Origin: Candidatus Onstottus arcticum
GTDB taxonomy: Bacteria; Acidobacteriota; Blastocatellia; UBA7656
Reading direction: 5' to 3'
DNA length: 64,000 nucleotides
Assembly: GCA_038040485.1 (NCBI GenBank)
Contig: JBBPIE010000001.1
Coordinates: forward strand, 152,014 to 216,013
This document shows, in pieces, positions 2,527 to 53,560 of the stretch. Within the stretch, counting starts at the first letter, position 1, and each line of letters opens with the position of its first letter. Under the pieces are notes generated by a model. That model had not been told where the DNA came from and made no database searches. It saw only the letters and a list, made by a program, of their open reading frames with translations. A program made the position numbers and the translations under genes.

Positions 2527-2530
2527 ACGA

Positions 2531-2660
2531 AGCGAGGGCGCGAAGGGGATAGGGAGACAGGGCGAAGGGGAGACGGGGTGAAGGCATCTCGTCTCCCCTT
2601 CGCCGCGTCTCCCCCTCGCCCCCTCTCCCCTTCGCCCCTTCGCCCCTTCGCCCCTTCGCC
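2531..2660. repeat. Imperfect palindrome made of CGAAGGGG(A) / (T)CCCCTTCG tandem repeats, between convergent genes
   Basis: G-rich arm 2534-2583 and complementary C-rich arm 2590-2660 around centre 'aaggcatctcgtc'. The C-rich arm carries extra CCCCTTCG units. Confidence 0.8.
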
Positions 2661-2674
2661 GAGTCACTCCTCAA

Positions 2675-3787
2675 TCACGGCTTCTTCCGCCTCTGCTTCT
2701 CCTTTTCCCTCTCAAGCTCTCGCTGTTTTCGAAGTTCTTCTTCCATCTCGAGAATCGAAGGGGGAGGCGGCGCAAACGTTAGTTCCTCGCGATAAGTCGC
2801 GTAAACCGGCTTGCCGTTGAGCAGCGCAGGCGAGAAGCGATACTGGCGGAACGCGTCGATCGCGCGTTCGTCAATAATCGCATCCAGCGAGCGCATCACT
2901 CGCACGTTCACGATCTTCCCTTCGGGTGTGACGACGCCGCCCAACAACACCGAGCCTCGGATTGCGCGGACGGCCTCGAACTTTGGCGCCACCCGCTCGA
3001 GCGGAACCGGCAGCGTGAACCGATCGTTTTCCGTCATCTTCAACGCAGCCCCGAACTCATCGACTGGATGCGACAATTCCTGGGGCCGGTTGCGCAGGTT
3101 TGCAAGCGGGACGATCTCCGGCGTTACCGACATCAGCAGCGTCCGTTCGATTGGCACGCTTTCCTGGCGCCCGCCTGCTCCGATGTAGCTTTTTACGCCG
3201 AACATTCCTTTTCCGCCGCGAAGCAATACCGTCTCGAAGTTGTCCAACTCGACGCCCTTCAGGTCAAGCAGTGGTTGGTTCGCGTAGCGAACCTGCACGT
3301 CCAGTTTCATGAATCCCCGAACCACTTCGCGCGGAGTCACCGAGAAAACCATGTACTCCGGACCGAGCAAGACCGCGTCGCTGAAAGTATCGCCCGAGCG
3401 CAGACCGACTTCGCGCACGTGGCGCATCGCAAGTTCTTCGAGCTTGTGCTTGTCCTTCACATAGGCGCTCTCTTCTTGCGCGCTCGAAGCGGTGCTTGCA
3501 AGACGCGTGACTTCTTGCATCGCAGGCGAGCGAGCCGCATCGTATTGGTACGCGGCAAACGTAAAGTTGACTGCGTACTCGCGGCCGCCGGATCGCACGC
3601 CGCCCGACCCGCTTTGACCAGGCGCCGGCGAAGAACAAGTCAGAAACAGCGCAATAGCCGAGAGCGCGCAGAACGCCTTCCGCGAGCCTTGCGGTTTACT
3701 TTCCTTGAGCAAAGGAAGGGTCACTAAACGGCGCGAACGCGCCAGGACTAACCGCGAGTTTGAAACCCAACGGAACCAGTAGCTCAT
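2675..3787 (-). CDS. Lipoprotein/secreted protein with C-terminal TonB_C-like domain
   Basis: C-terminal segment VLLGGVVTPEGKIVNVRVMRSLDAIIDERAIDAFRQYRFSPALLNGKPV resembles the TonB C-terminal domain. N-terminal lipobox-like LTCSS. Start moved to ATG at 3787 (MSYWF) to avoid overlap with rsmI; start uncertain. Confidence 0.55.
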   Translation of the reverse strand: MSYWFRWVSNSRLVLARSRRLVTLPLLKESKPQGSRKAFCALSAIALFLTCSSPAPGQSGSGGVRSGGREYAVNFTFAAYQYDAARSPAMQEVTRLASTASSAQEESAYVKDKHKLEELAMRHVREVGLRSGDTFSDAVLLGPEYMVFSVTPREVVRGFMKLDVQVRYANQPLLDLKGVELDNFETVLLRGGKGMFGVKSYIGAGGRQESVPIERTLLMSVTPEIVPLANLRNRPQELSHPVDEFGAALKMTENDRFTLPVPLERVAPKFEAVRAIRGSVLLGGVVTPEGKIVNVRVMRSLDAIIDERAIDAFRQYRFSPALLNGKPVYATYREELTFAPPPPSILEMEEELRKQRELEREKEKQRRKKP

Positions 3788-5402: not shown

Positions 5403-8400
5403 ATGTTCAGACTCGAAAAACTTGAGATCATCGGATTTAAGTCTTTTGCCGACCGCACAACTCTCGTCTTTGGCGAAGGGATTACCGGCGTCGTAGGCCC
5501 GAACGGCTGCGGCAAAAGCAACATCGCCGAAGCCATCTCGTGGGTGCTGGGCGAACAGTCCGCCAAGAATCTGCGCGGCGGCAAGATGGAAGACGTCATC
5601 TTCAACGGCACCCGTGACCGCAAGCCCACTGGCCTCGCCGAAGTGTTGCTCACGATGGTAGCTATCGAAGACATCGCTGCTCGCGACGCCCAGGAGCCGG
5701 ACGGCGACGACGAACTTGAGTTCGACGAAGCGCTCTCCAGCGCCCAGCGCGCCGCCGATGCCGCGCGCTCGCTAGTCGAGGAGCTTGCGCCGCCTGAGGA
5801 AGAAACAGCCGAGCTTCCGGAAGCCACGGCATCCGAAGCCGGCGAAACAACCGAACCGCTGGCGCAGCCCGACGACGTTGATTGCGCACTCTCTGATCAG
5901 GCAGGCGCAACCGAGCCAGCCACTGACGATCAATCGGCGGAAGTGCGAGGCGATTCCTCCCTCTCTCAACTTGAAGTCGAGCCCGTCGCCGGTGAGACAG
6001 ACGCGCAAACCGATCGCGAGGAAAAGAAGAAGCGTCGCTCGCCGCGCCCGCCCAAGCGCCGCACGATTGCAATATCGGCGGGTGAGCGCGTCACCGTCGG
6101 CCGCAGGCTTTACCGCACGGGCGACAGCGACTACCTCATGAACGGCCGGCCTTGCTTGTTGCGCGACGTTCAGGATCTGTTCGCTGGAACCGGACTGGGC
6201 GGCGCGCACTACGCGATCATCGAACAAGGCCGCATCGGGCAGATACTCTCTTCAAAGCCGCTCGACCGCCGCGGCCTGATCGAAGAAGCTGCGGGCATCA
6301 CTAAGTTCAAATCTCGCAAGCGCGCCACCGAACTCAAGCTCGATTCGGCCAAGCTGAACCTCACCCGGCTCAACGACATCATCAGCGAAGTCGAGCGGCA
6401 AGTGAACAGCCTCAAGCGGCAAGCGCAGAAGGCGCGCCGCTATCGCCGCCTCCGCGAAGAGATGCGCTCGCTGATGAAGGTGGTGTTCACCGCCGACCAC
6501 TACCGGCTCAGTGAAGCCAACGAGCGAGTTGCACGCGAGCTTCAAGAAGCCGGGCGCAACCAGACCGAGCTTGACACCCAACTCACCGAGCGTGAAACCG
6601 AGCATCGCGGTGTTTCGGGTCACGCGCGCTCGGCGGAAGACCAGCTTGCGGGTCTGCGCGAGCAGGCGGCGGCGCTCGAGCTTGAAGCGGACCGGGCGCG
6701 CAATCGCCGCGCGTTCGAGGAACAACAGATCAAGGAACTCGGCGCGCGGATCGAAGAACTCAATCGCGATCAACAAGCTTTTGACTCGCGGCTCGAGTTA
6801 CTGGACGAAGAAGCGAAGCGCCGCGGCGAAAGTCTCAGCGCGCTCGAGACTGAACTTGCGGCCGCGCAAGCCGGGCTGCTGACCTGCGACGGCGAATACC
6901 AGGAAGAGCTTTCGCGATTGCGCGCAGCCGAAGTCGAGATCGAAGCGATGCGCCAGCGAATGGTCTGGGAGATCGGCGCAACCGAACGGCTCCGGAACCT
7001 GGGCGCGAGCGTTCAGGATTCGTTTAAACGGCTCGAACTGAGGCAAACAACCCTGCAGGCTGAGTTCGAACGCGCGACGGCCCGGCGCGACGAAGCCGCA
7101 ACGGAGCACTCGCGCGTCCAGAGCGAATCCGACGACGGCCGCCGCCGCCTCGACGAACTTACTGCAAGAATCGCGGAGCGCGCTGCTGAAGTGATCACGC
7201 TACGCGACCAGCGCGCCGCGCTTCGCGCCGAGCTCGAGAAGACACAGGCCGAGCGGGTTGCTGCTCAGCACAGGCTTGCGTCGCTCGAAGATCTCGACCG
7301 ACACCGCGCCTACTACACCGACGCGGTTCAACAAGTGCTGTCGCCCGAACAAGCCACGCGCATAAACGCGCTTGGCACTCTGGCCGATTTCGTCGAGGTC
7401 GATAAGCCATACGAGGCGCTCGTCGAAAGCCTGTTTGGACGCGAGCTGCAATCCGTCCTCGTTCCCACCATCGATGATGCGCTTGCCGGCGTCGATTACA
7501 TCAAGAGCGAAGAACTGGGTCGCGGCGCGTTCCTTGTGGTTGGCCTGCACGGGGGCGAGGAAGACGCTTCGGATTCGGACGGTCGCCCAGACGACGAAGG
7601 CAGAGAGCCAAGCGACGACTCGCGAACCGAATGGTCGCAACAACCGGTCTTCGAAGTTGACGACAGAGGCCGCGTCTTCGACTCCGCGTCCGAGCCCGTG
7701 CCTATGCAGTTTCATCTCGAAGTGCTGCGCGCGATTGACCTGCTGGGGTTGAGGCCGGAAATCAAGAACGTAGTCGAACACGCTTTCCCGGAGAAATGCG
7801 GCGCGGCGGTCGTGCCGGATCTCGAAGCCGCGCTTCACCTCTCAATCGAGAACCAGTCGCGAATCTACGTCACGTCGGACGGCGAAATGGTAGTCAACGG
7901 GCGTTTGATCGTCACCGGCGCACAGGCCGGCCAGCGCGGGACTTCGCTTCTAGGGTTGAAGCGCGAGATCAAGGAGCTGCGAATTCAGAGTGAGACGCTT
8001 GGCCTCGAGCAAGAGCGGTTGAGCGGCGAGATGGACGACGCCGAGCGGAAGCTTGCGGGGATGGAAGGCGAGGCCGCCGCGCTCGACGGCGAGCTTCGCG
8101 AACACGAGAAGACCGCTGCCGCGCGAAGCTCCCAGCTCGAAGGGTTGGCACGGGATCTCGAACGCGCCGAGCAGCACGTGCGAGTCGTCGGGCTCGAGTT
8201 AGAGCAAACTGCCGATGAGCGGCGCGAGCAAGAAACACGTGACGAGCAGATCGCGGCGGAGCTCGCGGCTGCCGAAGCTTCCCGACTGAGCGTGCAGGCA
8301 TCGCTCGCGGAATCTCAGTTGTCTCTCTCTGAGATGCGGGCGGGCGCGGAGCAGATCTCCGAGCGATTGTCCTCAGCGAGGGCTTCGGCTGCGGCGCTTG

Positions 8401-9605
8401 GCGAGCGATTGCAAGCGGCGCGCGCTGAGATGCGGCGAATCGAAAGTGAGACTGAGGAGTTGAACTCGCGGATTAACCGCAACCGCCTCGAGATGTACGA
8501 GAGCCACGGCCGCATCGAGGAACTGACCGTCTCGCAGACCGAAGCGGCGGGCGCACTGGCGCGCTTCGAGGCCGAGCGCGCGTCGCTCGATGAAAGCATC
8601 GACGCCGCGAGCAAGGAACTTCAAACGGCGCGCGCAAGGACCGACGAGCTCGAGACGATGCTCAGCGAGATGCGCCAGGCCGTTTCGGCGGCGCACGACC
8701 GGCGAAGCCAGTTCGAAATCGAACGTGCGAGAATCGAATCCGAGGCCGAGCATCTCGCGCGCACCTGCCTATCCGAGCTTGCGATGTCACTCGAAGACGT
8801 GGTGACCAGCGTTGAGATCAGTGGTCAGTGGCCGGAAGGCGGAGGCCAGAGGTCAGAAGTCGGAGATCAGAAGTCAGAAGTCGGCAGTCAGGTCCCGGAT
8901 CATTTGGCAGAGACTGATGGGGAGCAGACCGATCTGACCTCTGACCTCCGACCTCTGACCTCTGATTCCGCGCGCAGCCGCCTCGACGAGTTGCGCCGAA
9001 AGATAGACGAGATCGGGCCGGTCAATATGATGGCGCTCGAGGAGCTGGAGGAGTCCGAGCAGCGGTTCAAGTTCCTGAGCGAACAACGACGCGACATACT
9101 TGACTCGATCCGAATGACCGAGGAAGCGCTCACCGAGATTCGGCGGAGGTCGCGCGAGCGATTCCGCCACGCGTTCGCGCACATCAATGAAAACTTCCAG
9201 CGGATGTTCGTCGAGTTGTTTGGCGGCGGGCGCGGCGAGATGATTTTGATCGACCAAGACGACGTGCTCGAGTCGGGCATCGATCTGATCGCGCAGCCGC
9301 CCGGTAAGCGATTACAAAACGTGTTGCTCTTGTCGGGCGGTGAGAAAGCGATGGCGGCGATCGCGCTTGTGCTTGCGATCTTCCAGTACCGGCCTTCGCC
9401 GTTCTGCATACTCGACGAAGTCGATGCGCCGCTTGATGAGGTCAACGTCGGCCGGTTCTCGGACAAAGTGATAGAGATGAGCCGCGACACGCAGTTTCTG
9501 GTCATCACTCACAACAAACGCACTATGGAAGCCGCGCGAGCGCTTTACGGCGTCACTATGCAAGAGCCCGGCGTATCGAAACTCGTCTCGGTCAAGTTCG
9601 AGTAG
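5403..9605 (+). CDS. smc: Chromosome segregation protein SMC
   Basis: N-terminal head MFRLEKLEIIGFKSFADRTTLVFGEGITGVVGPNGCGKSNI (Walker A). Long coiled coils. C-terminal LSGGEKAMAAIALVLAIF signature and Walker B (ILDEVDAPLD). Confidence 0.93.
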   Translation: MFRLEKLEIIGFKSFADRTTLVFGEGITGVVGPNGCGKSNIAEAISWVLGEQSAKNLRGGKMEDVIFNGTRDRKPTGLAEVLLTMVAIEDIAARDAQEPDGDDELEFDEALSSAQRAADAARSLVEELAPPEEETAELPEATASEAGETTEPLAQPDDVDCALSDQAGATEPATDDQSAEVRGDSSLSQLEVEPVAGETDAQTDREEKKKRRSPRPPKRRTIAISAGERVTVGRRLYRTGDSDYLMNGRPCLLRDVQDLFAGTGLGGAHYAIIEQGRIGQILSSKPLDRRGLIEEAAGITKFKSRKRATELKLDSAKLNLTRLNDIISEVERQVNSLKRQAQKARRYRRLREEMRSLMKVVFTADHYRLSEANERVARELQEAGRNQTELDTQLTERETEHRGVSGHARSAEDQLAGLREQAAALELEADRARNRRAFEEQQIKELGARIEELNRDQQAFDSRLELLDEEAKRRGESLSALETELAAAQAGLLTCDGEYQEELSRLRAAEVEIEAMRQRMVWEIGATERLRNLGASVQDSFKRLELRQTTLQAEFERATARRDEAATEHSRVQSESDDGRRRLDELTARIAERAAEVITLRDQRAALRAELEKTQAERVAAQHRLASLEDLDRHRAYYTDAVQQVLSPEQATRINALGTLADFVEVDKPYEALVESLFGRELQSVLVPTIDDALAGVDYIKSEELGRGAFLVVGLHGGEEDASDSDGRPDDEGREPSDDSRTEWSQQPVFEVDDRGRVFDSASEPVPMQFHLEVLRAIDLLGLRPEIKNVVEHAFPEKCGAAVVPDLEAALHLSIENQSRIYVTSDGEMVVNGRLIVTGAQAGQRGTSLLGLKREIKELRIQSETLGLEQERLSGEMDDAERKLAGMEGEAAALDGELREHEKTAAARSSQLEGLARDLERAEQHVRVVGLELEQTADERREQETRDEQIAAELAAAEASRLSVQASLAESQLSLSEMRAGAEQISERLSSARASAAALGERLQAARAEMRRIESETEELNSRINRNRLEMYESHGRIEELTVSQTEAAGALARFEAERASLDESIDAASKELQTARARTDELETMLSEMRQAVSAAHDRRSQFEIERARIESEAEHLARTCLSELAMSLEDVVTSVEISGQWPEGGGQRSEVGDQKSEVGSQVPDHLAETDGEQTDLTSDLRPLTSDSARSRLDELRRKIDEIGPVNMMALEELEESEQRFKFLSEQRRDILDSIRMTEEALTEIRRRSRERFRHAFAHINENFQRMFVELFGGGRGEMILIDQDDVLESGIDLIAQPPGKRLQNVLLLSGGEKAMAAIALVLAIFQYRPSPFCILDEVDAPLDEVNVGRFSDKVIEMSRDTQFLVITHNKRTMEAARALYGVTMQEPGVSKLVSVKFE
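8818..8965. repeat. Imperfect palindromic simple-repeat element, in-frame inside smc
   Basis: Left arm 'agtggtcagtggccggaaggcggaggccagaggtcagaagtcggagatcagaagtcagaagtcgg'. Right arm 'gatctgacctctgacctccgacctctgacctctga' is the reverse complement of the GTCAGAGG-type units. Centre contains GGATCAT. Encodes QWPEGGGQRSEVGDQKSEVGS...TDLTSDLRPLTSDS. Confidence 0.85.
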
Positions 9606-9685
9606 GGAAATCTCAAACAGGGATGGTCGCACGCACGAGGAGGCCCGGATCACGGGGCGTCTTGTGCGCGCGGCCATCCCTGTTT
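9606..9685 (+). terminator. Long stem-loop immediately downstream of smc
   Basis: AAACAGGGATGGTCGCACGCACGAG ... CTTGTGCGCGCGGCCATCCCTGTTT are near-perfect inverted arms. No clear U-tract follows. Confidence 0.45.
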
Positions 9686-9703
9686 AAGCTCTGTAGTTGG
9701 GAT

Positions 9704-10408
9704 ATGAGTGCAACCCCGCTTTCATTTCGACTTCTGCTGCTGCTGATGGCCGCCGCAAGCCTCGCCAGTCCGACGGCGGCGCAAAACGGTGACGCCGGGA
9801 CAGGACCAGCGGGCTTGAGCTTGGCATACAAGTTTGAGAACGCACGCTTCTATATTCCGTTGTTGGAGATCGACCTGGCGCGGGACGGCGCCGGCGAGTT
9901 GCGCTTCAAACGCGGCGAATCCGACGAGGTCGTCGATCTAAAATTCAGACTCCTGCCGTCAACGCTGGCCCGAGTTCGCCAGTTGTGCGCAGCGACCCAG
10001 TTTCTGACGTCGGACGCCGGCTATCAAGATAAGAAGGACTTTTCGCATCTAGGCTGGATCAGCATTTCGGCGAGGCAAGGCGCGCTTTCCCGGTCCGTCC
10101 GTTTCAACTACACGACGAACGCCGAGATTCGCGAGTTGGCCGACATCTTTCGGGCTATCGCGACTCAGGAGATCCATGTGTTTGACATGGAGACGGCACA
10201 GCGGTATCAACCGCTCGATCTGCCTGGGCGGCTGGAAGCGGTTGAAAACGATTTGCGGCTGGAGCGGCTGGCCGAGCCCGAAAGGATGCTTGTGCCGCTT
10301 AGCGAGATCGCCGGCGACGACACGCAAGCGTTGATCGCGCGCAATCACGCGAGCCGAATCATCGACGCCATCAAGAAGGGTAAGTTCAAAGCGCCGGTGA
10401 AGAAATAG
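9704..10408 (+). CDS. Hypothetical secreted protein
   Basis: Start chosen at internal ATG 9704 giving a signal peptide MSATPLSFRLLLLLMAAASLASPTAAQ. No recognisable domain. Confidence 0.5.
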   Translation: MSATPLSFRLLLLLMAAASLASPTAAQNGDAGTGPAGLSLAYKFENARFYIPLLEIDLARDGAGELRFKRGESDEVVDLKFRLLPSTLARVRQLCAATQFLTSDAGYQDKKDFSHLGWISISARQGALSRSVRFNYTTNAEIRELADIFRAIATQEIHVFDMETAQRYQPLDLPGRLEAVENDLRLERLAEPERMLVPLSEIAGDDTQALIARNHASRIIDAIKKGKFKAPVKK

Positions 10409-10560
10409 TGGTCAGTCAGTAGTCCGTAGTCCGTTGTCAGTAGTCCGTAGCTACGGATCATCGAGCATAGACGGACTCGTGACTACAGCCGCTGAGTGCG
10501 AGTTACGAACTGCTAACTGCGAGCTACTGACTAAGGACTACTGACTACTGACTACGTGCC
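10408..10560. repeat. Intergenic palindromic simple-repeat element (GTAGTCC/AGTCAGT units)
   Basis: Left arm 'agtggtcagtcagtagtccgtagtccgttgtcagtagtccgtag'. Centre contains ACGGATCATCGAG. Right arm 'ctactgactaaggactactgactactgactacg'. Confidence 0.85.
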
Positions 10561-12081
10561 ATGTTCATACCGAGAGGAAGAGTCATTCACGAGAACCTGG
10601 CGACGAGCTACGTGCTTGTAGAAGCGCTGGTCGCCGACTTGTCTGAGGGCGGCTTCACCGGAGTGGTAGAAGTACTCCTGCGCGATACCGACAGTCACGT
10701 CATCATTTCGCGCGGCGAAGTGACGGCTACCGTTGAAACCCGGCTCAATGCTGAAAGCGGAGCCCGAGCGGTCCTCACGCCTGCGGTTGCCGAGCTTGCA
10801 GCGCGGGCGAAACTCGAACGCGGCCGCGTCTCCGTTTTCAGCTATCCTATGGCCACCTGCAGCGCGATCTCTGGACGAATAAACTCTCAACCGCTCTACA
10901 CGAAGCTGAGCTCCGAATTTGCGGACCTCGAAAGGATGCTCTCCAAACTCGGGCGCGAACCCGACAAGCAGTGGTTTATCGAAATCGAATCGGCAAGCGG
11001 GCTATGCGCGCTGATCCACCTTAACGGCGAACGCTGTCTGGTGATGAGCTCCGACGTTGACCGTCGCGAGGCGGAAGCTAACAGCGCTGATTTGATGCAG
11101 AACTCGGAGGTTCGAGGACTCATCGACGACTTCAACCGGGCGGGAGGCACGTTCGATGTGTTCTTCAAGGAATTGGAAGCGCCAGCGCGCGCGACTGAGT
11201 CGTCGCCAACCCTGCATCAGTGGATTGAACCGCCGGGACTCGCTCGCGAAGGCGTGACCGCCGTTGCGCCCACCTCCGGCAAAGAAGACCACCCGGCAGT
11301 GGCCGAGTCTCAAGACGAAGTAGCCCAGGCGGTGCTGGATGCCAAAACCGCCTATGACTCGCTGTCAGTTGCGGATTCACCTTTCAGCGCCATCGACGAA
11401 CGGGAAGCTGAAGTCGAGTCACCGCCCGATCCGTTGCCACCAAGTCCCGCGGAGTTGGAAGAAGCAAGGCTCGCGGTGCTCGGGCTGGCTCGCGAATCGG
11501 AGTTCGGAAACGATCCGTTCAACGACGAAGCTTCCGAACAGTTTTCATCGGACGAGACGCAATACTCCTCGTTCACGTTCGACTCGCCAGAGGCGGCGGC
11601 TGACGAGAGTCAAGAAGGCGATCTATTGGCTGTCGGTTACGACTTCAAGACTTCGGACGACTTGCAGCGGGCCAGCGAGGCCGAAGTAATGGCCGAAGTG
11701 AAGCGGCTGATGGCTGAGATCGCAAGGACAATCGAAGAGGCTATCGAGTCCGTCGAACAGCGAAGCACGTTTCCGATACACCTTCGCGCCGGGCAGTTGA
11801 AAGTAGCGGACCGCTATCCATTTCTCGATCCGTTCGGACCCGAGTTCGAATACCTGGCTGGCGAGATCGTCTTCGTCGGGCACGTAAGTCCGGCTGAGTT
11901 TGTCGAAGGGCTGACCGAAGCGCTAAAGCTCGCGGTTGACGGAGTGGCTCAAGTCAGCGCGCAGCCTGCGCGGGTCCGCGGGCGTGTCGCGGACGTTCTG
12001 CGAAGACTGCTGAACCGGCAGCAAACGGAGTTTGAAGCGTATGGGTTGGATGAGTCGGTCCGTGAAATCCTGGATGCATGA
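10561..12081 (+). CDS. Hypothetical protein with acidic low-complexity central region
   Basis: 506-aa ORF with good coding periodicity. The N-terminal segment is possibly duplicated around residue 140 and looks DUF4388/roadblock-like (weak). Central region is D/E/S-rich and likely disordered. Confidence 0.5.
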   Translation: MFIPRGRVIHENLATSYVLVEALVADLSEGGFTGVVEVLLRDTDSHVIISRGEVTATVETRLNAESGARAVLTPAVAELAARAKLERGRVSVFSYPMATCSAISGRINSQPLYTKLSSEFADLERMLSKLGREPDKQWFIEIESASGLCALIHLNGERCLVMSSDVDRREAEANSADLMQNSEVRGLIDDFNRAGGTFDVFFKELEAPARATESSPTLHQWIEPPGLAREGVTAVAPTSGKEDHPAVAESQDEVAQAVLDAKTAYDSLSVADSPFSAIDEREAEVESPPDPLPPSPAELEEARLAVLGLARESEFGNDPFNDEASEQFSSDETQYSSFTFDSPEAAADESQEGDLLAVGYDFKTSDDLQRASEAEVMAEVKRLMAEIARTIEEAIESVEQRSTFPIHLRAGQLKVADRYPFLDPFGPEFEYLAGEIVFVGHVSPAEFVEGLTEALKLAVDGVAQVSAQPARVRGRVADVLRRLLNRQQTEFEAYGLDESVREILDA

Positions 12082-13047: not shown

Positions 13048-13445
13048 GCGGCGATGTTAGCAACCGACCCGAGGAGTAACAAGCGAACGAGCTGCAAACG
13101 TTGCCGGCAGATGGGTCTCCGGTGGCGGTTCCGACCAAAGCTTGGATTTTGCGCTACGTTCTTCTTGACACTGATTGGTGGTTGCGCTAGGATGCGGCCC
13201 ACCTCGCAACAACTAAACATTCACTCAGAGCAGTCGGGAAAAGGCTTGAGCAGCACGCATTCAAAGCTTGGTAAAGCCACAATATCGAAGCTCGCAAGGG
13301 CGGAGCTTCCGGGTTGCGGTCTTGCGTTCTACGCTTCGCTCCCGGCGTCGAAACGCCTGGGGCAGCGGCTGACAACGGCACCGAATGCAAATTCACTGAG
13401 GTGAATGAGGCTCAGCGCGGCAACACTTGGAGGAGGATTCTCAGG

Positions 13446-14390: not shown

Positions 14391-15872
14391 ATGCACAACG
14401 AACTGCTTAGATCGCTGCCCTCGATTGAGCGGCTGCTTGCCGGTGAAGCTGCCGAGCGGCTCTCAGCAGCGTTGAACCGCGGCATCGTGCGCGACTTGTT
14501 ACGCGAGATCCTGGAGCAGATGCGGCACGAGATCGAAGTCCAAAGTCCAAAGTCCAAAGTCCAGAGTCCAGAGTCCGGCGTGACGGATCAGACGTTGGAC
14601 TTTGGACTTTGGACTTTGGACCTTCCTTCCGAGATCGAGCGGCGGCTTGAAGCGCGCGCGGCGGGTCTGACCACTCCTTCGCTGCGCCGGGTGATCAACG
14701 CAACCGGTGTCATAATCCACACAAACCTGGGGCGCGCTCCGCTTGCAAAAGCAGCGATCGAGGCGCTGGCCGGCGTGGCTTCTCGCTACTCAAACCTTGA
14801 ATACGACCTCTCCCGAGGCGAGCGAGGGCATCGCGAGTCGCATTGTCAGGAGCTGCTGGCACGCCTTGCAGGAAGCGATGCTGCCATCGTCGCCAACAAC
14901 AACGCGGCAGCCGTGATGCTTGTGCTGAATACGCTTGCGGAAGGCGGCGAAGCGATTGTCTCGCGCGGCGAGCTGATCGAGATCGGCGGGAGCTTTCGAA
15001 TTCCCGACGTGATCGAAAAAAGCGGCGCGCGATTGCGCGAAGTCGGAACGACCAACAGAACACGCATCGCCGATTATGAGCGCGCCATCAACGAGCGGAC
15101 GAAACTCGTTCTGCGAGTGCATCCTTCGAACTACAAGATCACTGGCTTCACCGAACGGCCCTCGGTTCACGAGATCGCCGAGCTCGCGCGGCGCGCCGGA
15201 ATTCCATCTTTCGAAGATCTCGGCTCGGGGTGTTTGATCGATCTTTCGCGTTACGGAGTTACCGGCGAGCCTGTTGTCCGGAATTCGCTCGACGCTGGAA
15301 TCTCGGTAGTCTCGTTCAGCGGCGACAAGATGCTGGGCGGCCCGCAAGCGGGAATCATCGCCGGCTCGCGCGAGATCATCGATCGCGTGCGTAAGAACGC
15401 GTTGATGCGGGCACTTCGAGTTGACAAGATGACTTACGCCGCGCTCGAGGCGACCCTGAGGCTCTATGAGCGCGGCGCCGCGGAATCGGAAGTGCCCGTC
15501 ATCCGCGCGATCGCCGCCTCGCGGGACGAGGTCGCAGACCGAGCCGCCAGCTTCAGCATTCTGGTCGAGGCCAGAACCAACGGGCGGGTCAAAGCCTCAT
15601 GCGAAGACGGCGAGTCAGTCATTGGAGGCGGCTCAGCACCTGACGCGAAGCTTCAAACCGTTCTAGTCTCGCTCGAACACAGCGAGGCGTCGGCGGCCTC
15701 GCTGGAAGCGCGGCTTCGATGCAACCCGGTTCCGATCATCGCACGCACCGAGCGCGGCCGCGTGTTGATCGACTTGCGCACGGTGGCTGCCGATGAGGAG
15801 AAGACGATTCTGGATGCGCTGGCCGCAATCGGCGAACCCGTGCCGGTGACTGCGGCATCAGCAGAGATGTAG
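14391..15872 (+). CDS. selA: L-seryl-tRNA(Sec) selenium transferase
   Basis: RRVINATGVIIHTNLGRAPL, the PLP-lysine region FSGDKMLGGPQAGIIAG and the overall SelA layout. Confidence 0.88.
   Translation: MHNELLRSLPSIERLLAGEAAERLSAALNRGIVRDLLREILEQMRHEIEVQSPKSKVQSPESGVTDQTLDFGLWTLDLPSEIERRLEARAAGLTTPSLRRVINATGVIIHTNLGRAPLAKAAIEALAGVASRYSNLEYDLSRGERGHRESHCQELLARLAGSDAAIVANNNAAAVMLVLNTLAEGGEAIVSRGELIEIGGSFRIPDVIEKSGARLREVGTTNRTRIADYERAINERTKLVLRVHPSNYKITGFTERPSVHEIAELARRAGIPSFEDLGSGCLIDLSRYGVTGEPVVRNSLDAGISVVSFSGDKMLGGPQAGIIAGSREIIDRVRKNALMRALRVDKMTYAALEATLRLYERGAAESEVPVIRAIAASRDEVADRAASFSILVEARTNGRVKASCEDGESVIGGGSAPDAKLQTVLVSLEHSEASAASLEARLRCNPVPIIARTERGRVLIDLRTVAADEEKTILDALAAIGEPVPVTAASAEM
14537..14624. 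repeat. Palindromic simple-repeat element, in-frame inside selA
   Basis: (GTCCAAA)x3-(GTCCAGA)x2 ... centre GACGGATCAGACG ... (TTGGACT-type)x4. Encodes VQSPKSKVQSPESGVTDQTLDFGLWTLDL in the N-terminal region of SelA. Confidence 0.85.
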
Positions 15873-37198: not shown

Positions 37199-37260
37199 CA
37201 ATTTTGGATTTTAGATTTTGGATTTTGGATTAGCGGAATGGCCTGTTTCACAGGCCCTCG
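37199..37260. repeat. TTTTGGA(TTTTAGA) tandem-repeat half-element followed by a small hairpin
   Basis: aattttggattttagattttggattttggatt, then GGCCTGT-TTCAC-AGGCC. Same repeat unit as the full palindromic copy at 41578-41692. Confidence 0.75.
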
Positions 37261-39063: not shown

Positions 39064-40632
39064 ATGCCTGAGCGCTTACCCGAGAACGTACGCCAACTGC
39101 TCGAAGCACAGGTAGAGCTGTACGCAGGCAAACGATTTCTGATCCTCGAGTCCGGGGAGCGCGAGTTCACCTACCGCGAGTTTGACGACCAGGTCAATCG
39201 AGCCGCGAATGTGCTCATCGAGCTTGGCGCGGTAAAAGGCGATCGGGTGAGCTTGCTCCTGACCAATCGCCCCGAGTATCTGATCTTCTATTTCGCTTGC
39301 TTCAAGATCGGCGCCTGGGCGGGTCCGGTGAACTCTCTGCTCAAGCCCAACGAGATCCAGTTCATCGTCGCCAACTCAGAAGCAAAGATCGTGGTCACCG
39401 AGTCGTCGCTTTCTCCGGGGATCGAGCAAGCACGCGCGAACATAGACTCGCTCCGTCACGTGCTGGTCATCGACCAGGATAGTAGTCAGTGGTCAGTGGC
39501 GGAACAGTCCGAAGGTTCAGGGTTCAGGGTTCAGGGTTCCGAATCAGACCCGGAACTCGGAACGCGAGACTCGGAACCGCGCGCCGACGACGAAGCCGTC
39601 ATCATCTACACCTCGGGCACTACCGGCAAGCCAAAGGGCGTGCTGCTAACGCACGGGAACTTGCTCTCAAACGCACAGCAGATTGCCGAATGGCTTCGGC
39701 TCACGGAAGAAGACCGCTCGCTGATGATAATGCCGCTGTTTCATGTCAACGCGCTGATGACCACGTGTCTGGCCGCGATGTGGGTCGGCGGGAGCGTCGT
39801 GCTGGCGCCGCGCTTTAGCGCCTCGCGTCACTGGGAGACAGTCACGCGACACGGGGTTACCTACTTCGGTTCGGTCGCGACGATGTTGTCGTTGCTCAAC
39901 CAGACTTATCCCGAGGGCGTGCCCTCAGGAGTGAACATCAGCCGCTTGCGATTCGCGCTCTGCGGTTCCGCGCCCGTTCCGGTCGAGGTGCTGAAAACTT
40001 TCGAGTCGCTGTTTCAGTGTCCGGTGATCGAAGGGTACGGCTTGTCGGAATCGACCTGCCGCTCGACGTTCAACCCGCCGGACGAGCGTCGCCGAATTGG
40101 GTCAGTCGGACTGCCGATCGGCAACGAAGCCAAAGTCTTTGACGAAAACGATCGCGAGCTTGGCGTGGGTGAGGTCGGCGAGATCGTTCTACGCGGACCG
40201 AACATCATGAAGGGCTACTACCGGAACGAGGACGCGAACGCCGAAGCGTTTCGTTCGGGCTGGTTTCACACCGGCGACCTCGGCTGTTGCGATGAGGACG
40301 GGTTCTTTTTCGTGGTGGACCGTAAGAGCGACATGATCATTCGCGGCGGCGAGAACATATACCCGCGCGAGATCGACGAAGTGCTCTACCAACATTCGAA
40401 GGTGCAAGACGCTGCAACGATCGGAGTGAAAGACGGTCTGTACGGGGAAGAAGTAAAGTCGTTCATAGTGTTGCGCGAAGGCGAGGAGGCCGGCGAAGGA
40501 GAGATTCTTGATTTTTGCCGCGAGCGGCTCGCAGATTTCAAATGTCCAAAATCGATAGAGTTTCTTGACGAGATTCCGAAGGGCCCAACGGGTAAGCTTC
40601 TAAAGCGGGAACTCGCGTCGAGGAAACCATGA
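39064..40632 (+). CDS. AMP-dependent synthetase/ligase (acyl-CoA synthetase family)
   Basis: AMP-binding box IIYTSGTTGKPKGVLLTH, TGDLGCCDEDGFFFVVDRKSDMIIRGGENIYPREIDEVL, and the C-terminal K of ...PKGPTGKLLKREL. Confidence 0.88.
   Translation: MPERLPENVRQLLEAQVELYAGKRFLILESGEREFTYREFDDQVNRAANVLIELGAVKGDRVSLLLTNRPEYLIFYFACFKIGAWAGPVNSLLKPNEIQFIVANSEAKIVVTESSLSPGIEQARANIDSLRHVLVIDQDSSQWSVAEQSEGSGFRVQGSESDPELGTRDSEPRADDEAVIIYTSGTTGKPKGVLLTHGNLLSNAQQIAEWLRLTEEDRSLMIMPLFHVNALMTTCLAAMWVGGSVVLAPRFSASRHWETVTRHGVTYFGSVATMLSLLNQTYPEGVPSGVNISRLRFALCGSAPVPVEVLKTFESLFQCPVIEGYGLSESTCRSTFNPPDERRRIGSVGLPIGNEAKVFDENDRELGVGEVGEIVLRGPNIMKGYYRNEDANAEAFRSGWFHTGDLGCCDEDGFFFVVDRKSDMIIRGGENIYPREIDEVLYQHSKVQDAATIGVKDGLYGEEVKSFIVLREGEEAGEGEILDFCRERLADFKCPKSIEFLDEIPKGPTGKLLKRELASRKP
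39478..39600. repeat. Palindromic simple-repeat element, in-frame inside the acyl-CoA synthetase gene
   Basis: agtagtcagtggtcagtggcgg... (GGTTCAG)x3 ... centre CGAATCAGACC ... cggaactcggaacgcgagactcggaaccg. Encodes DSSQWSVAEQSEGSGFRVQGSESDPELGTRDSEPR between conserved AMP-binding subdomains. Confidence 0.85.
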
Positions 40633-41482: not shown

Positions 41483-41577
41483 TGAGAATTGCGCCTCGCG
41501 CCGCGCGTGGTGATTATAGGACATCGTCTCGGAAGCAGTCTACGCACAGTTCCGCGGGAGCACAGGCAAAGGTGATT

Positions 41578-41692
41578 TTTTGGATTTTAGATTTTAGATT
41601 TTGGATTTTGGATTTTGGATTGCGCCGCTGCCCTTGTAGCTCTTGGTGGCAAGCTCGAGCTATTCCAAAATCCAAAATCCAAAATCCAAAAT
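41578..41692. repeat. Palindromic simple-repeat element (TTTTGGA/TTTTAGA units)
   Basis: tttttggattttagattttagattttggattttggattttggatt | gcgccgctgcccttgtagctcttggtggcaagctcgagctatt | ccaaaatccaaaatccaaaatccaaaatg. Confidence 0.85.
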
Positions 41693-41791
41693 GACCTTCG
41701 CCTCCCAGGGACTACCGGCAAGTAGGGCTTCTTGTTCGCTGAACGCGGCCAAGGTAGACTCGCCTTTGAGCGCAAGCTTGGTCATCGGGCA

Positions 41792-47410: not shown

Positions 47411-47862
47411 CGATCATTCCTCGGGCCCCATCCACATGCGGAGGCCGCACTGATTGTATTAAACGTGAGTTGAATCAATGGGGGGAGTCGTTTCAACTTC
47501 ACTTCGGTAGCCAGACTTTCTCAGGAACGAAGCTTCGAGCGACGACCTCAAGAGAAGCATTCGTCGCCAGTTGCGCAGCGTTCCAAAGACCTTGGCTTTG
47601 CGACCCAGGATCACTCCTGGTGTGCCCTTATCGGCTTCGTTCAAAACAACTTAAGTGCATAGCCAGTGTAGTCTGCGGGGTCAGGGGAGTCAATAGTTAG
47701 TATTTGCAGCGGTGTTCCCGTCGCGCGATAGAATTAGTTGCTTGATGTTGGCTTCTTTGCGCTAGGCTGAGGCGGGGTTCAGCTTGACACTCAATCTCGG
47801 CCTCCGCTATTTTGAGGGGTCTCATTGTTCGCAAAAAAGCTAACAAAGGCAGTTCCTCGAAG

Positions 47863-47938
47863 GCCAGCGTAGCTCAGTTGGTAGAGCATCGGTTTCGTAA
47901 ACCGGAGGTCAAGGGTTCGAGTCCCTTCGCTGGCTCCA
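47863..47938 (+). tRNA. tRNA-Thr (anticodon CGU)
   Basis: GCCAGCGTAGCTCAGTTGGTAGAGCATCGGTTTCGTAAACCGGAGGTCAAGGGTTCGAGTCCCTTCGCTGGCTCCA. Acceptor stem 7 bp, GTTCGAGTC T-loop, anticodon loop TTCGTAA, encoded CCA. Confidence 0.85.
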
Positions 47939-52790: not shown

Positions 52791-53065
52791 GGCACGGGCA
52801 GGCGAGCCGATCTATCGGTTAGTGCGATATAAAGTAGTGCTGTTCGTAGCAAGTTAAAATGTCCGCTTTTCATAGCAAGTTATATGTCCGGTCTGCTGGC
52901 CCTTCCATAACGATTGCTTCTTTATAAGGTTATCCGAAAAGTTTTTGCTCAAGAAATCCGAGCAGCTTTTACACAAATTGAAATAGCCACAGAGACGCCG
53001 CCCGGCGGCGTCTCTGTGGCTTCTTGTCTGTTCTGATTAGACGATCGGCTCGTAAACGGCCATCA

Positions 53066-53560
53066 TTATCTGAACAACTCCAGCGCGACTTGGGAGAGCG
53101 CCGCCACAATAGGCTCTGCAAAACGAGTGTTGCGGCTGCGCCCGCCGCCGAGACCCGAGGCGAGAAGTACGCCTATGCCTATTCCCGCGCCGAACGCGAT
53201 AAGGGTAAGCTTGCCGGGATTCTCCTTGCCGTAGCTCATCGTCTGATCGTAGGTGTTGCCAACGACTTCGCTCGTCTTGTCGTAGGCCTGGCTTACAGCC
53301 TTCACCGTCTGATCGTAGGCAGTCTGTACTCCGCTGCCAACATCCGAAACGATTTCGCGCGCACGTTGAGGCGCAGTGCCCGCGAACCCTGGTGTCCCAG
53401 ATGGTTGCGCTGTTGCGGTAGACGGCTTGTTAGCAGCATCCGGATCCTGCTGAACGTGCCTCTGTGGCTGTGAGGTGGATTGCGGGGTTGTGTTAGACGG
53501 GTTATTAGGACTACCACCGGTCGTTTTGCCCTGCTCTGTTACATTCTTGTTCGATTCCAT
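53066..53560 (-). CDS. Membrane-anchored stress protein (DUF883/YqjD/ElaB-like)
   Basis: Hydrophilic N-terminus, central helical region, C-terminal TM KLTLIAFGAGIGIGVLLASGL. Confidence 0.55.
   Translation of the reverse strand: MESNKNVTEQGKTTGGSPNNPSNTTPQSTSQPQRHVQQDPDAANKPSTATAQPSGTPGFAGTAPQRAREIVSDVGSGVQTAYDQTVKAVSQAYDKTSEVVGNTYDQTMSYGKENPGKLTLIAFGAGIGIGVLLASGLGGGRSRNTRFAEPIVAALSQVALELFR

Follow-up and report, generated by a model that had tools for sequence, protein, structure and literature searches.

What is the 150-bp palindrome that lies between two genes of Candidatus Onstottus arcticum, and how is it accommodated there? We analysed a window of 64,000 nucleotides from contig JBBPIE010000001.1 of this organism, in which a single element, called E2 (window 10409-10560), takes up the whole 152-nt spacer between orf261, which ends in TAG, and orf506, which starts with ATG. 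E2 is an imperfect palindrome, made up of a 5' array of AGTCAGT/AGTCCGT units and a 3' array of CTACTGA units. It is a member of a lineage-wide class of inverted heptanucleotide tandem-repeat pairs present in Blastocatellia and in phages, and the general form of the class is 5'-(NNNCAGT)n ... (ACTGNNN)n-3'. We think it somewhat probable that E2 evolves in place by homogenising itself, and that it is tolerated because folding keeps the orf261 stop and the orf506 start, which lacks a Shine-Dalgarno (SD) sequence, close together.

The genes smc (5403-9605), orf261 (9623-10408) and orf506 (10561-12081) are co-directional on one strand, and neither orf261 nor orf506 gave a Pfam match. Tandem Repeats Finder detected two period-7 arrays in E2, at 10414-10450 (AGTCCGT, 5.3 copies) and at 10524-10555 (CTACTGA, 4.6 copies), with 83-84% matches, and a separate period scan agreed. 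The best inverted repeat pairs 10414-10453 with 10514-10553, the 40-nt arms being 83% complementary and 60 nt apart. An earlier note on this DNA had described 10408-10560 as a palindrome of complementary 7-nt arrays, and both the sequence and this architecture were borne out. Its placing of the palindrome centre at ACGGATCATCGAG (10453-10465) was not, since the geometric centre lies at about 10483 and GGATCA (10455-10460) is found in the loop of an inner hairpin. Nor is E2 the 'unmutated' copy it was taken for, because its arms pair imperfectly and its right half includes decayed units, while far cleaner copies lie at 14530-14626 and 41577-41695.

The predicted RNA fold of 10400-10570 had an energy of -73.6 kcal/mol, compared to -49.1 +/- 4.5 kcal/mol for 200 dinucleotide shuffles (z = -5.4), and none of the shuffles equalled it. 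The DNA fold of the E2 region likewise reached -36.8 kcal/mol, compared to -22.5 kcal/mol in shuffles (z = -4.7). The z value of the RNA fold argues against a palindrome that arose by chance. Short reads can mis-assemble repeats of this kind, but the identical E2 sequence was found in an independent public Logan assembly, and dozens of assemblies made independently, some of them with contigs as long as 2.9 and 7.9 Mb, showed the same architecture. We therefore consider a chance palindrome or an assembly artefact to be extremely improbable. Rfam 15 at gathering score, run on the whole window, gave nothing at E2 and detected only a tRNA and a c-di-GMP-I riboswitch elsewhere, and a permissive Rfam search of 10300-10700 returned only chance matches to small nucleolar RNAs (E>0.6). 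No terminator-like site was seen in 9400-11000, the stem being followed by CGTGCCATG, and a promoter scan near E2 gave a single 9/12 promoter-like match, which is the chance level.

Related loci were obtained by scanning reference genomes with the neighbouring MiaA protein, which led to metagenome-assembled genomes of Blastocatellia (Acidobacteriota; best match 81% identical), and further metagenome loci were retrieved with an orf506 alignment. There were 75 arrays of period 7 in 722 kb of this related DNA, compared to 5 or fewer for each of the periods 5, 6 and 8-12, and none in shuffled sequence. An inverted partner (at least 17 of 21 positions matching, at most 250 nt away) was found for 24 of the 34 arrays in the first locus set. 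At least 36 distinct heptamer units occur in the class, and intergenic copies typically span the full gap from a stop codon to the start codon of the next co-directional gene. In many genomes the unit GGTCAGT borders arrays on their outer or inner side, and GTGGTCAG had 57 matches in 58 loci (23.5 in shuffles), 26 of them within 60 nt of arrays. We found no description of heptamer repeats in Acidobacteria in the literature searched, although an absence of reports is not proof. A preprint on telomeric transposons proved irrelevant to the heptamer class.

The orf261-orf506 junction was readable in 26 distinct loci (loci are designated by L and a number), and 16 hairpin-bearing orthologues were folded. 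A heptamer-array hairpin was present at 19 of the 26 junctions, down to about 40% identity of orf506. In 15 of the 16 folded orthologues the distance from the stop codon to the hairpin is 0-6 nt, L053 being the exception with 12 nt; the distance from the hairpin to the ATG is 0-14 nt, again in 15 of the 16, with 33 nt in L038. The element therefore evolves in place at a fixed stop-to-start junction. Units differ by lineage (AGTCCGT/AGTCAGT, CAGTTGC, AGTGGTC, GGTCATT, AGTCAGR, GGTCAGA and GGCAGAA), all of them at most one or two changes from GTCAGNN, and the loops could not be aligned. When the left and right arms of the same locus were paired, the duplex energy was -1.19 kcal/mol/nt, compared to -0.75 kcal/mol/nt for arms paired across orthologues, and none of 20,000 permutations was as good. 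The two arms thus co-vary, staying complementary while unit and loop turn over.

Closely related strains revealed how the arms change. L046 and L048, which have 98% identical flanks and a homologous loop, differ in the 5' arm (8 vs 2.5 units) and in the 3' arm (6 vs 7 units), and this difference is ordinary slippage behaviour. Copy number changes independently in the two arms, and variant units spread within an arm. L037 contains a GTCATTT unit and a different loop, whereas L046 and L048 have AGTCCGT, and yet its orf506 DNA is about 95% identical to theirs, and 98% identical over the first 90 nt after the ATG. Even strains whose flanks are 95-98% identical can have different units, loops and copy numbers; the site is therefore hypervariable, and E2 does not represent the 'reference architecture' that had been proposed for the family. 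A gradual drift of the unit along the phylogeny was considered and rejected, because units are scattered over the orf506 tree and near-identical strains can be wholly different.

Some of the junctions lacked the hairpin. The spacer of L004 is 11 nt long (TGGCCGGTGGC) and corresponds to a fragment of a left arm of the L032 type, and this near-empty site is therefore a collapsed element and not a virgin site. The other hairpin-less orthologues had unrelated spacers of 122-154 nt. The SD-antiSD energy at orf506 ranged from +2.2 to -3.5 kcal/mol in the presence of the hairpin and from -3.9 to -7.2 kcal/mol in its absence, a contrast for which only about three independent hairpin-less lineages are available.

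We suggest that replication slippage would expand, contract and homogenise each arm, and that intrastrand template switching on fold-back (quasipalindrome correction) would transfer changes from one arm to the other. Template switching is known to homogenise the arms of inverted repeats (PMC7202029, PMC8604942). The unit could be replaced outright by occasional collapse and regrowth, or by ectopic conversion from other arrays. In the mRNA, pairing of the arms would bring the orf261 stop and the SD-less orf506 start to within a few nucleotides of each other, and the insertion would thereby be topologically silent. With stop and start held near each other, as they are by the 11-nt spacer of L004, translation of orf506 could stay coupled to termination of orf261. 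Copies inside genes would survive only if they are in frame, consist of stop-free or stop-patched units and lie in linkers.

The junction data could also mean that the hairpin acts in cis in polycistronic mRNAs, as an RNA device under selection whose functional part is the heptamer arrays, the coding copies being by-products. Such a device might couple translation or re-initiation by joining stop and start (or a distant SD), act as an RNase III or stability element, or recruit a single-strand-binding protein that covers 7 nt, such as a cold-shock-domain protein or S1. Retention of the hairpin at most junctions to so low a protein identity, always spanning stop to start, is in keeping with this, as are the co-variation of the arms, the SD-like sequences seen only where the hairpin is missing, and a CAGT/TCAG core that is conserved although loops are saturated. 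Arrays of TAACTGA before starts poor in ribosome-binding sites (RBSs) in Beggiatoaceae (PMC4679880) and altered recO and recF reporters on deletion of heptamers in Nostoc (10.1101/2022.06.06.494920) point the same way. A regulatory hairpin ahead of the open reading frame at 10561, as suggested earlier, is compatible with the stop-to-start span and with the distribution of the SD sequence. However, arms are grossly unbalanced in close strains (L048), the hairpin was lost without replacement in L004, there is no conserved loop motif, and elements of the class also occur in essential coding sequences and between convergent and divergent genes, where coupling is impossible.

Selection on the sense transcript to preserve the pairing would be expected to leave an excess of G.U pairs in the sense strand. 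We counted 44 G.U pairs in the sense strand and 61 in the antisense strand, and among the 13 elements whose transcription direction is known and whose two strands differ clearly in folding, only 9 favoured the sense strand. Neither the minimum free energies (9:4) nor the G.U pairs (44 vs 61) showed a significant asymmetry that would indicate sense-strand RNA selection. The lack of a sense-strand G.U excess suggests that the process acts at the strand-symmetric level of DNA. In E1, the copy in smc, one A.C mismatch is repeated in successive units, and therefore the spread of a variant within an arm outpaces correction between arms. These features fit a strand-symmetric DNA process, in which slippage occurs within arrays and template switching on fold-back homogenises the arms. 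Taking both sides together, we regard the selected RNA device as rather unlikely, though it deserves to be kept in view.

The element can also lose one side. In L050, L051 and L036 the upstream gene is different, and a 3'-type array (CTACGGA or CAACTGA) alone is left before orf506, abutting the stop codon of the new gene. The synteny break therefore lies inside the element, and arrays may act as recombination breakpoints at gene borders. Retention of the 3'-type array at the orf506 start, despite the different upstream gene, would also be expected of an RNA device. Gene ends are plastic at junction elements. The orf261 homologue of L052 (1468-1584) reads through the 5' arm and ends at a TGA in the 3' arm, and in L045 (1637-1734) the TGA stop codon itself belongs to the first CAGTGAT unit. 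The loop of the junction hairpin holds a foreign insertion of 150-250 nt, consisting of other palindromic repeats, in L055 (~195-1100) and L036 (9714-10002); loops therefore serve as safe landing sites for further elements. In L036 a GCGCAGAG octamer palindrome is nested in the loop, resembling an octamer pair at 2530-2667 of the window.

A period scan of the 64-kb window identified six heptamer-array loci, including the copies designated E1, E3, E4 and E5 (Table 1), each of which has its own unit: GGTCAGA in E1, AAGTCCA in E3, GGGTTCA in E4 and TTTTGGA in E5. E1 lies in the coiled coil of SMC, E3 in the linker joining the N-terminal domain and the core of SelA, and E4 in an AMP-dependent acyl-CoA ligase. 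The T of CAGT, followed by AA, GA or AG at the joint between units, makes a stop codon, and therefore three units close all three frames. The coding copies E1, E3 and E4 use stop-free or stop-patched units instead. The 3' unit of E1, CCTCTGA, would place a TGA in frame at every third unit, and precisely that unit is CCTCCGA; the 5' arm of E1 contains TCGGAG, which matches the CCTCCGA of the other arm.

The copies in SMC and SelA are ancestral to the syntenic genomes. The copy region of SMC begins at a conserved ISGQWP (encoded by ATCAGTGGTCAGTGGCC); in both the window and L002 it is strongly palindromic and built from different units, and it has decayed to an ordinary variable linker in L004 and L006. 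The array in SelA orthologues likewise decays to an ordinary variable linker. In L002 the SMC homologue is split into two frames at residue 772/773 (near 13168); the split, either a frameshift or an error of assembly, lies clear of the repeat element.

Another possibility is a non-autonomous mobile element, similar to a miniature inverted-repeat transposable element (MITE) or a Rickettsia palindromic element (RPE). Its inverted ends would be arrays of subterminal heptamer sites for a transposase encoded elsewhere, and insertion would have placed copies in junctions and, in frame, inside genes. The earlier note had implied such an element, with a shared 'boundary' AGTGGTCAGT and a GGATCAT core. 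The boundary does recur beside arrays: AGTGGTCAG occurs seven times in the window, compared to 0.19 expected, and four of the seven occurrences adjoin heptamer arrays (8820, 10407, 14667 on the minus strand, and 39488). It is, however, merely the recurrent heptamer unit GGTCAGT. Similarly, CGGATCA is central in three elements (8896, 10454 and 14584, in E1-E3), but these are 3 of 15 occurrences in the window, where 12.1 are expected, and the motif is not enriched. For the GGATCA 'core', the best reading is that of a variant unit (G[G/A]TCAG) retained innermost. That a family exists was confirmed, as copies were found in the window and far beyond, and a lack of other copies was the outcome by which the note had proposed to refute it.

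An outer AGTGGTCAG unit in common to E1-E4 and an inner CGGATCA in common to E1-E3 are what a mobile element would show, and so are copies in frame within genes, as in RPEs, the replacement of the entire spacer between strains about 95% identical, and the nesting of other palindromes in the loops of L036 and L055. On the other hand, there is no target-site duplication at E2 (10408/10556), the flanks AAATAG/TGG... and ...ACG/TGCC being without a direct repeat. A 9-bp direct repeat, CGAGATCGA, flanks E3 at 14527-14535 and 14621-14629, and was rejected as a target-site duplication because L002 and L004 show the right copy (within EIERRLEA) and part of the left one to be ancestral coding sequence. 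The 64-kb window contains no near-identical full-length copies of the kind that MITEs produce, and its copies share only units, boundary and core; no conserved consensus of the repetitive extragenic palindromic (REP) type, which is imperfectly palindromic, about 20-40 nt long and headed by a GTAG-type motif, was found among them either. More than 35 different units cannot all suit one transposase. Genomes that are 70-80% identical have all three sites (SMC, junction and SelA) occupied, and no new sites occur along about 20 kb of synteny. The variation in unit number is of the slippage type, and no clean empty site was present among the orthologues, L004 being a left-arm remnant and the others having unrelated spacers. 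No transposase was identified, a genome-wide search for one not having been made. We consider a mobile element to be quite unlikely.

Phage genomes also carry the arrays. Our viral sample consisted of 59 stretches of IMG/VR contigs containing (GGTCAGT)x3, with about 62% G+C, in which 279 period-7 arrays were present in 479 kb; (AGTCCGT)x3 gave no match in viral contigs. One contig, L113 (IMGVR_UViG_3300044824_000335), encodes Neck1, tape measure, DUF2460, phiJL001 Gp84_N with BR0599, and Rcc01698_C proteins, and is a tail module of the siphovirus or gene transfer agent type. L122, a temperate relative (80% identity in the hub protein), has (GAGCAGT)n or a close variant at most junctions, mostly as single arrays and in most cases directly past the stop codon. 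At least 10 of the 16 listed junction spacers of a related phage contained arrays, and a more distant prophage, L125 (61% identity), has tight junctions that are free of arrays. No deposited phage reached 36% identity to the array-rich contig, and a host could not be assigned on that basis. L102, L080, L065 and related viral contigs resemble L113 in having structural operons with a heptamer-array hairpin at nearly every junction. Several junctions of L122 (e.g. 935-1016, 3454-3551, 5618-5697 and 10870-10933) also share a small GC-rich hairpin, GGGCGGGAAAGCGCAGCGC(C/A)TCCCGCC, beside (GAGCAGT)n, and this hairpin is a second, REP-like repeat family of that temperate phage.

The arms are also polarised. 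Among 19 chromosomal pairs the 5' arm had more G than C in 14 and less in 1, with 4 ties; in 18 viral pairs the CAGT-type arm was 5' in all 18, of which 12 had G>C, 6 were ties and none had G<C. E2 itself has a G-C excess of merely +2/-2. A G-rich 5' arm might be taken to orient the element with respect to transcription, but we rejected this reading, since the property is strand-symmetric and silent on which strand is read.

Several of our observations are difficult to accommodate if E2 simply evolves in place and is tolerated. The strict polarity (14 of 15 scorable chromosomal pairs and 18 of 18 viral pairs) is unexplained by slippage and template switching. A few units with a CAGT/TCAG core recur at unrelated loci and across phyla, and the AGTCCGT unit is shared at the junction by lineages that are only 50-58% identical in orf506 and whose loops are saturated. 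Neutral concerted evolution should let unit and loop drift equally, and the unit has been kept while loops are saturated, which implies some constraint or bias on the unit sequence. In L113, arrays fill 10 of 11 co-directional junctions, 7 of them as hairpins, and account for about 11% of the DNA; junctions 3, 6 and 8 have a common, near-identical interior of about 90 nt (CAGTTTTTTGCTTTTTGCCTTTACTGGCCACTGG...). Such a density of filled junctions and such shared interiors look like either selection or duplicative spread, which could be MITE-like or driven by conversion. The former would suit an RNA device, to which the arrays of the related phage also lend weight, and the shared interiors would suit a mobile element, as would an arm polarity that is fixed and reads inward as at transposon ends. 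Finally, the SD contrast comes from few lineages, and the coupling of orf506 to orf261 is suggested by geometry and the absence of an SD sequence.

Candidate causes of the polarity and the core include transposon-end-like binding sites, fold-back priming by the G-rich strand, and a recombination bias after hairpin cleavage. A broader proposal is that the hairpins, far from being inert simple repeats, are the product or substrate of a dedicated mechanism with a 7-nt register that operates across phyla, either as a device at operon junctions or as a heptamer-specific DNA transaction. The former would govern re-initiation on polycistronic mRNAs or their processing, and would be employed by phages at almost all late-gene junctions. 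The latter could involve an end-binding recombinase or transposase, arrays of primase sites, or the healing of breaks, and would explain the inward polarity, the occurrence of the CAGT core from cyanobacteria to Acidobacteria and the cassette-like replacement between strains. We hold such a mechanism to be unlikely. Evolution in place, with tolerance through folding, is still the explanation that we favour for E2, and at the same time both the phage data and the polarity suggest that more than simple slippage is at work.

Table 1. Positions in the window of the parts of E2, the adjoining codons and the other repeat loci.
Feature	Position	Strand	Remarks
orf261 TAG stop	10406..10408	+	overlaps first unit of E2; C-terminal KKGKFK.P.KK and stop kept in orthologues
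'Boundary' AGTGGTCAGT, outermost heptamer unit	10407..10416	+	GGTCAGT type; 7 matches vs 0.19 expected
E2 5' arm	10414..10450	+	AGTCAGT AGTCCGT AGTCCGT TGTCAGT AGTCCGT (NNNCAGT type); TAG stops at unit joints
E2 inner small hairpin	10433..10486	.	arms 10433-10448 / 10471-10486; loop contains CGGATCA 'core', 10454-10460
E2 interior	10487..10523	+	decayed 3'-type units CGAGTTA CGAACTG CTAACTG CGAGCTA; not conserved among orthologues
E2 3' arm	10524..10555	+	CTACTGA CTAAGGA CTACTGA CTACTGA CTAC (ACTGNNN type)
orf506 ATG	10561..10563	+	5 nt past hairpin; MFIPRG start conserved; no Shine-Dalgarno, SD-antiSD +0.6 kcal/mol
E1, in frame inside SMC (5403-9605)	8820..8966	+	units GGTCAGA/AGTCAGA, then CCTCTGA
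E3, in frame in SelA (14391-15872)	14530..14626	+	units AAGTCCA / TTGGACT; near-perfect palindrome
E4, in frame in AMP-dependent ligase (39064-40632), in a loop	39481..39580	+	AGTGGTC boundary, GGGTTCA units, decayed 3' arm
E5, intergenic, divergent genes on either side	41577..41695	.	units TTTTGGA / TCCAAAA
Lone array, ATTTTGG x4.4	37200..37232	+	unit and TTTTAGA variant as in E5 left arm; no inverted partner
Octamer analogue, inverted pair GGGCGAAG... / CCCCTTCG x8	2530..2667	.	fills gap between convergent stops 2526 and 2675; G-rich-5' polarity

Elsewhere in the window, the Rfam matches correspond to the c-di-GMP-I riboswitch at 47503-47636 (-), with 47.2 bits against a gathering score of 35, and to the tRNA gene at 47863-47935 (+). 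Tandem repeats of longer period are present at 52839-52890 (26 nt x2) and 53239-53320 (33 nt x2.5). They are unrelated to the heptamer class, and both fall in a zone of lower GC (0.51-0.54 G+C, ~50 to 58 kb).

Heptanucleotide tandem repeats have reportedly been noted in cyanobacteria since 1990. Heptamer repeats of Xanthomonas, Beggiatoaceae and Geobacter were noted later (PMC4692102, PMC4679880, PMC2700814). This is a known but unexplained kind of repeat. New here are a fourth phylum, one orthologous junction traced through about 26 lineages, the co-variation of arms with complete turnover of the unit, and the replacement of a whole spacer at about 95% strain identity. New as well are the strict polarity in common with Xanthomonas, the stop-avoiding copies that lie in frame within SMC and SelA, both essential proteins, and phage operons saturated with the same hairpins. 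These comparative features, when combined, make two old questions testable: the reason for a period of 7, and the nature of the arrays, which may be selfish, mutational or regulatory. The elements make hypervariable linkers in conserved proteins, shift gene ends through the stops that arrays provide, and mark synteny breakpoints, and are thus relevant to gene calling and strain typing in soil Acidobacteria.

How does the class compare with known systems? The short tandemly repeated repetitive sequences (STRRs) of heterocystous cyanobacteria, reportedly described by Mazel et al. in 1990, are said to have the units CCCCAGT (STRR1), TTGGTCA (STRR2) and CAACAGT (STRR3), and Vioque is said to have reported in 1997 that STRRs extend a helix of RNase P RNA. 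Like the STRRs, the present repeats have a 7-nt unit, tandem arrays at many dispersed loci and several unit types per genome. The CAGT core is common to both (AGTCAGT in E2, which also contains AGTGGTC), and the unit of L035 is exactly TTGGTCA, the unit reported for STRR2. E2 displays the features of STRRs and long simple sequence repeats (SSRs), with three or more copies of a 7-nt unit, an excess of period 7, slippage polymorphism and an STRR-type core. Unlike the STRRs, the present repeats belong to the phylum Acidobacteriota, in genomes of about 58% G+C, and are mainly inverted pairs that fill stop-to-start spacers, and in-frame coding copies are as frequent as intergenic ones in this window.

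RPEs, MITEs and the series formed by REPs, bacterial interspersed mosaic elements and REPINs (REP doublets that form hairpins) are palindromic repeats of about 100-150 bp, of which RPEs are found in frame in essential genes and REPINs are intergenic hairpin pairs. Each family has a consensus, with target-site duplications in MITEs or a RAYT (REP-associated tyrosine) transposase in REPINs, and none has an internal 7-nt periodicity. E1, E3 and E4 are in frame inside genes as RPEs are, but the class has no family consensus, and E2 is non-coding. Hairpin-bridged ('split') RBSs and structure-mediated coupling are known from genes 38 and 25 of phage T4 and from the coat and replicase genes of MS2. 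There, as would be the case here, a hairpin between upstream signals and the start sets the effective spacing, and the base of the stem is opened when the upstream gene is translated. Each of those hairpins is single and sequence-specific, with an experimentally shown role, whereas at E2 the role is suggested only by geometry and by the absence of an SD sequence.

Heptamers are the most over-represented class of long SSRs in prokaryotes, according to Mrazek (2007) as summarised in PMC4679880. In Nostoc, heptamer repeats (TTTTGAA / TTCAAAA) lie near start codons, and their deletion alters the expression of recO and recF reporters (10.1101/2022.06.06.494920). Geobacter metallireducens has class 3 paired heptanucleotide sites (MTYCTGA x5), drawn in a supplementary alignment as looping across both strands, and GGACCGG x4 elements (PMC2700814). 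The class 3 sites have a TCAG/CTGA core (KTCAGRA, similar to the GTCAGAA/GTCAGGA of L038 and L052), and the GGACCGG family, like the present class, occurs within genes as well as between them (PMC2700814). Unlike the present repeats, the Geobacter sites were read as binding sites of a global regulator, and each class has one consensus and a copy number fixed at 4-5.

Direct repeats of TAACTGA are found in marine Beggiatoaceae, some cyanobacteria and Bacteroidetes (MacGregor 2015, PMC4679880). In Beggiatoaceae they lie within a few nucleotides before the start codon, where the spacers have few canonical RBSs, and a post-transcriptional role involving S1, cold-shock proteins (Csp) or CsrA was proposed (PMC4679880). 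TAACTGA (= ACTGATA) is a unit of the ACTGNNN type, as in the 3' arms described here (CTACTGA, CAACTGA). Whereas the Beggiatoaceae repeats comprise 169 direct sets and 1 inverted set, a complementary 5' arm is the rule here.

The GGGAATC heptamer SSRs of Xanthomonas are mostly intergenic and near the end of the upstream open reading frame (Rehm et al. 2015, PMC4692102). Each genome has 70-75 inverted pairs, which are 'always' convergent, a G-rich plus-strand array being followed by a minus-strand array; the pair or single type is kept between species while lengths differ, and 7-11% are intragenic (PMC4692102). Xanthomonas uses essentially one unit genome-wide, with G-quadruplex potential, whereas we found at least 36 units, and E2 is without G-runs. 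The co-variation of arms, the turnover of units and the bridging of stop to start seen here are not described for Xanthomonas (PMC4692102). What the two have in common is the arrangement itself: two arrays on opposite strands, close together, with their G-rich strands convergent.

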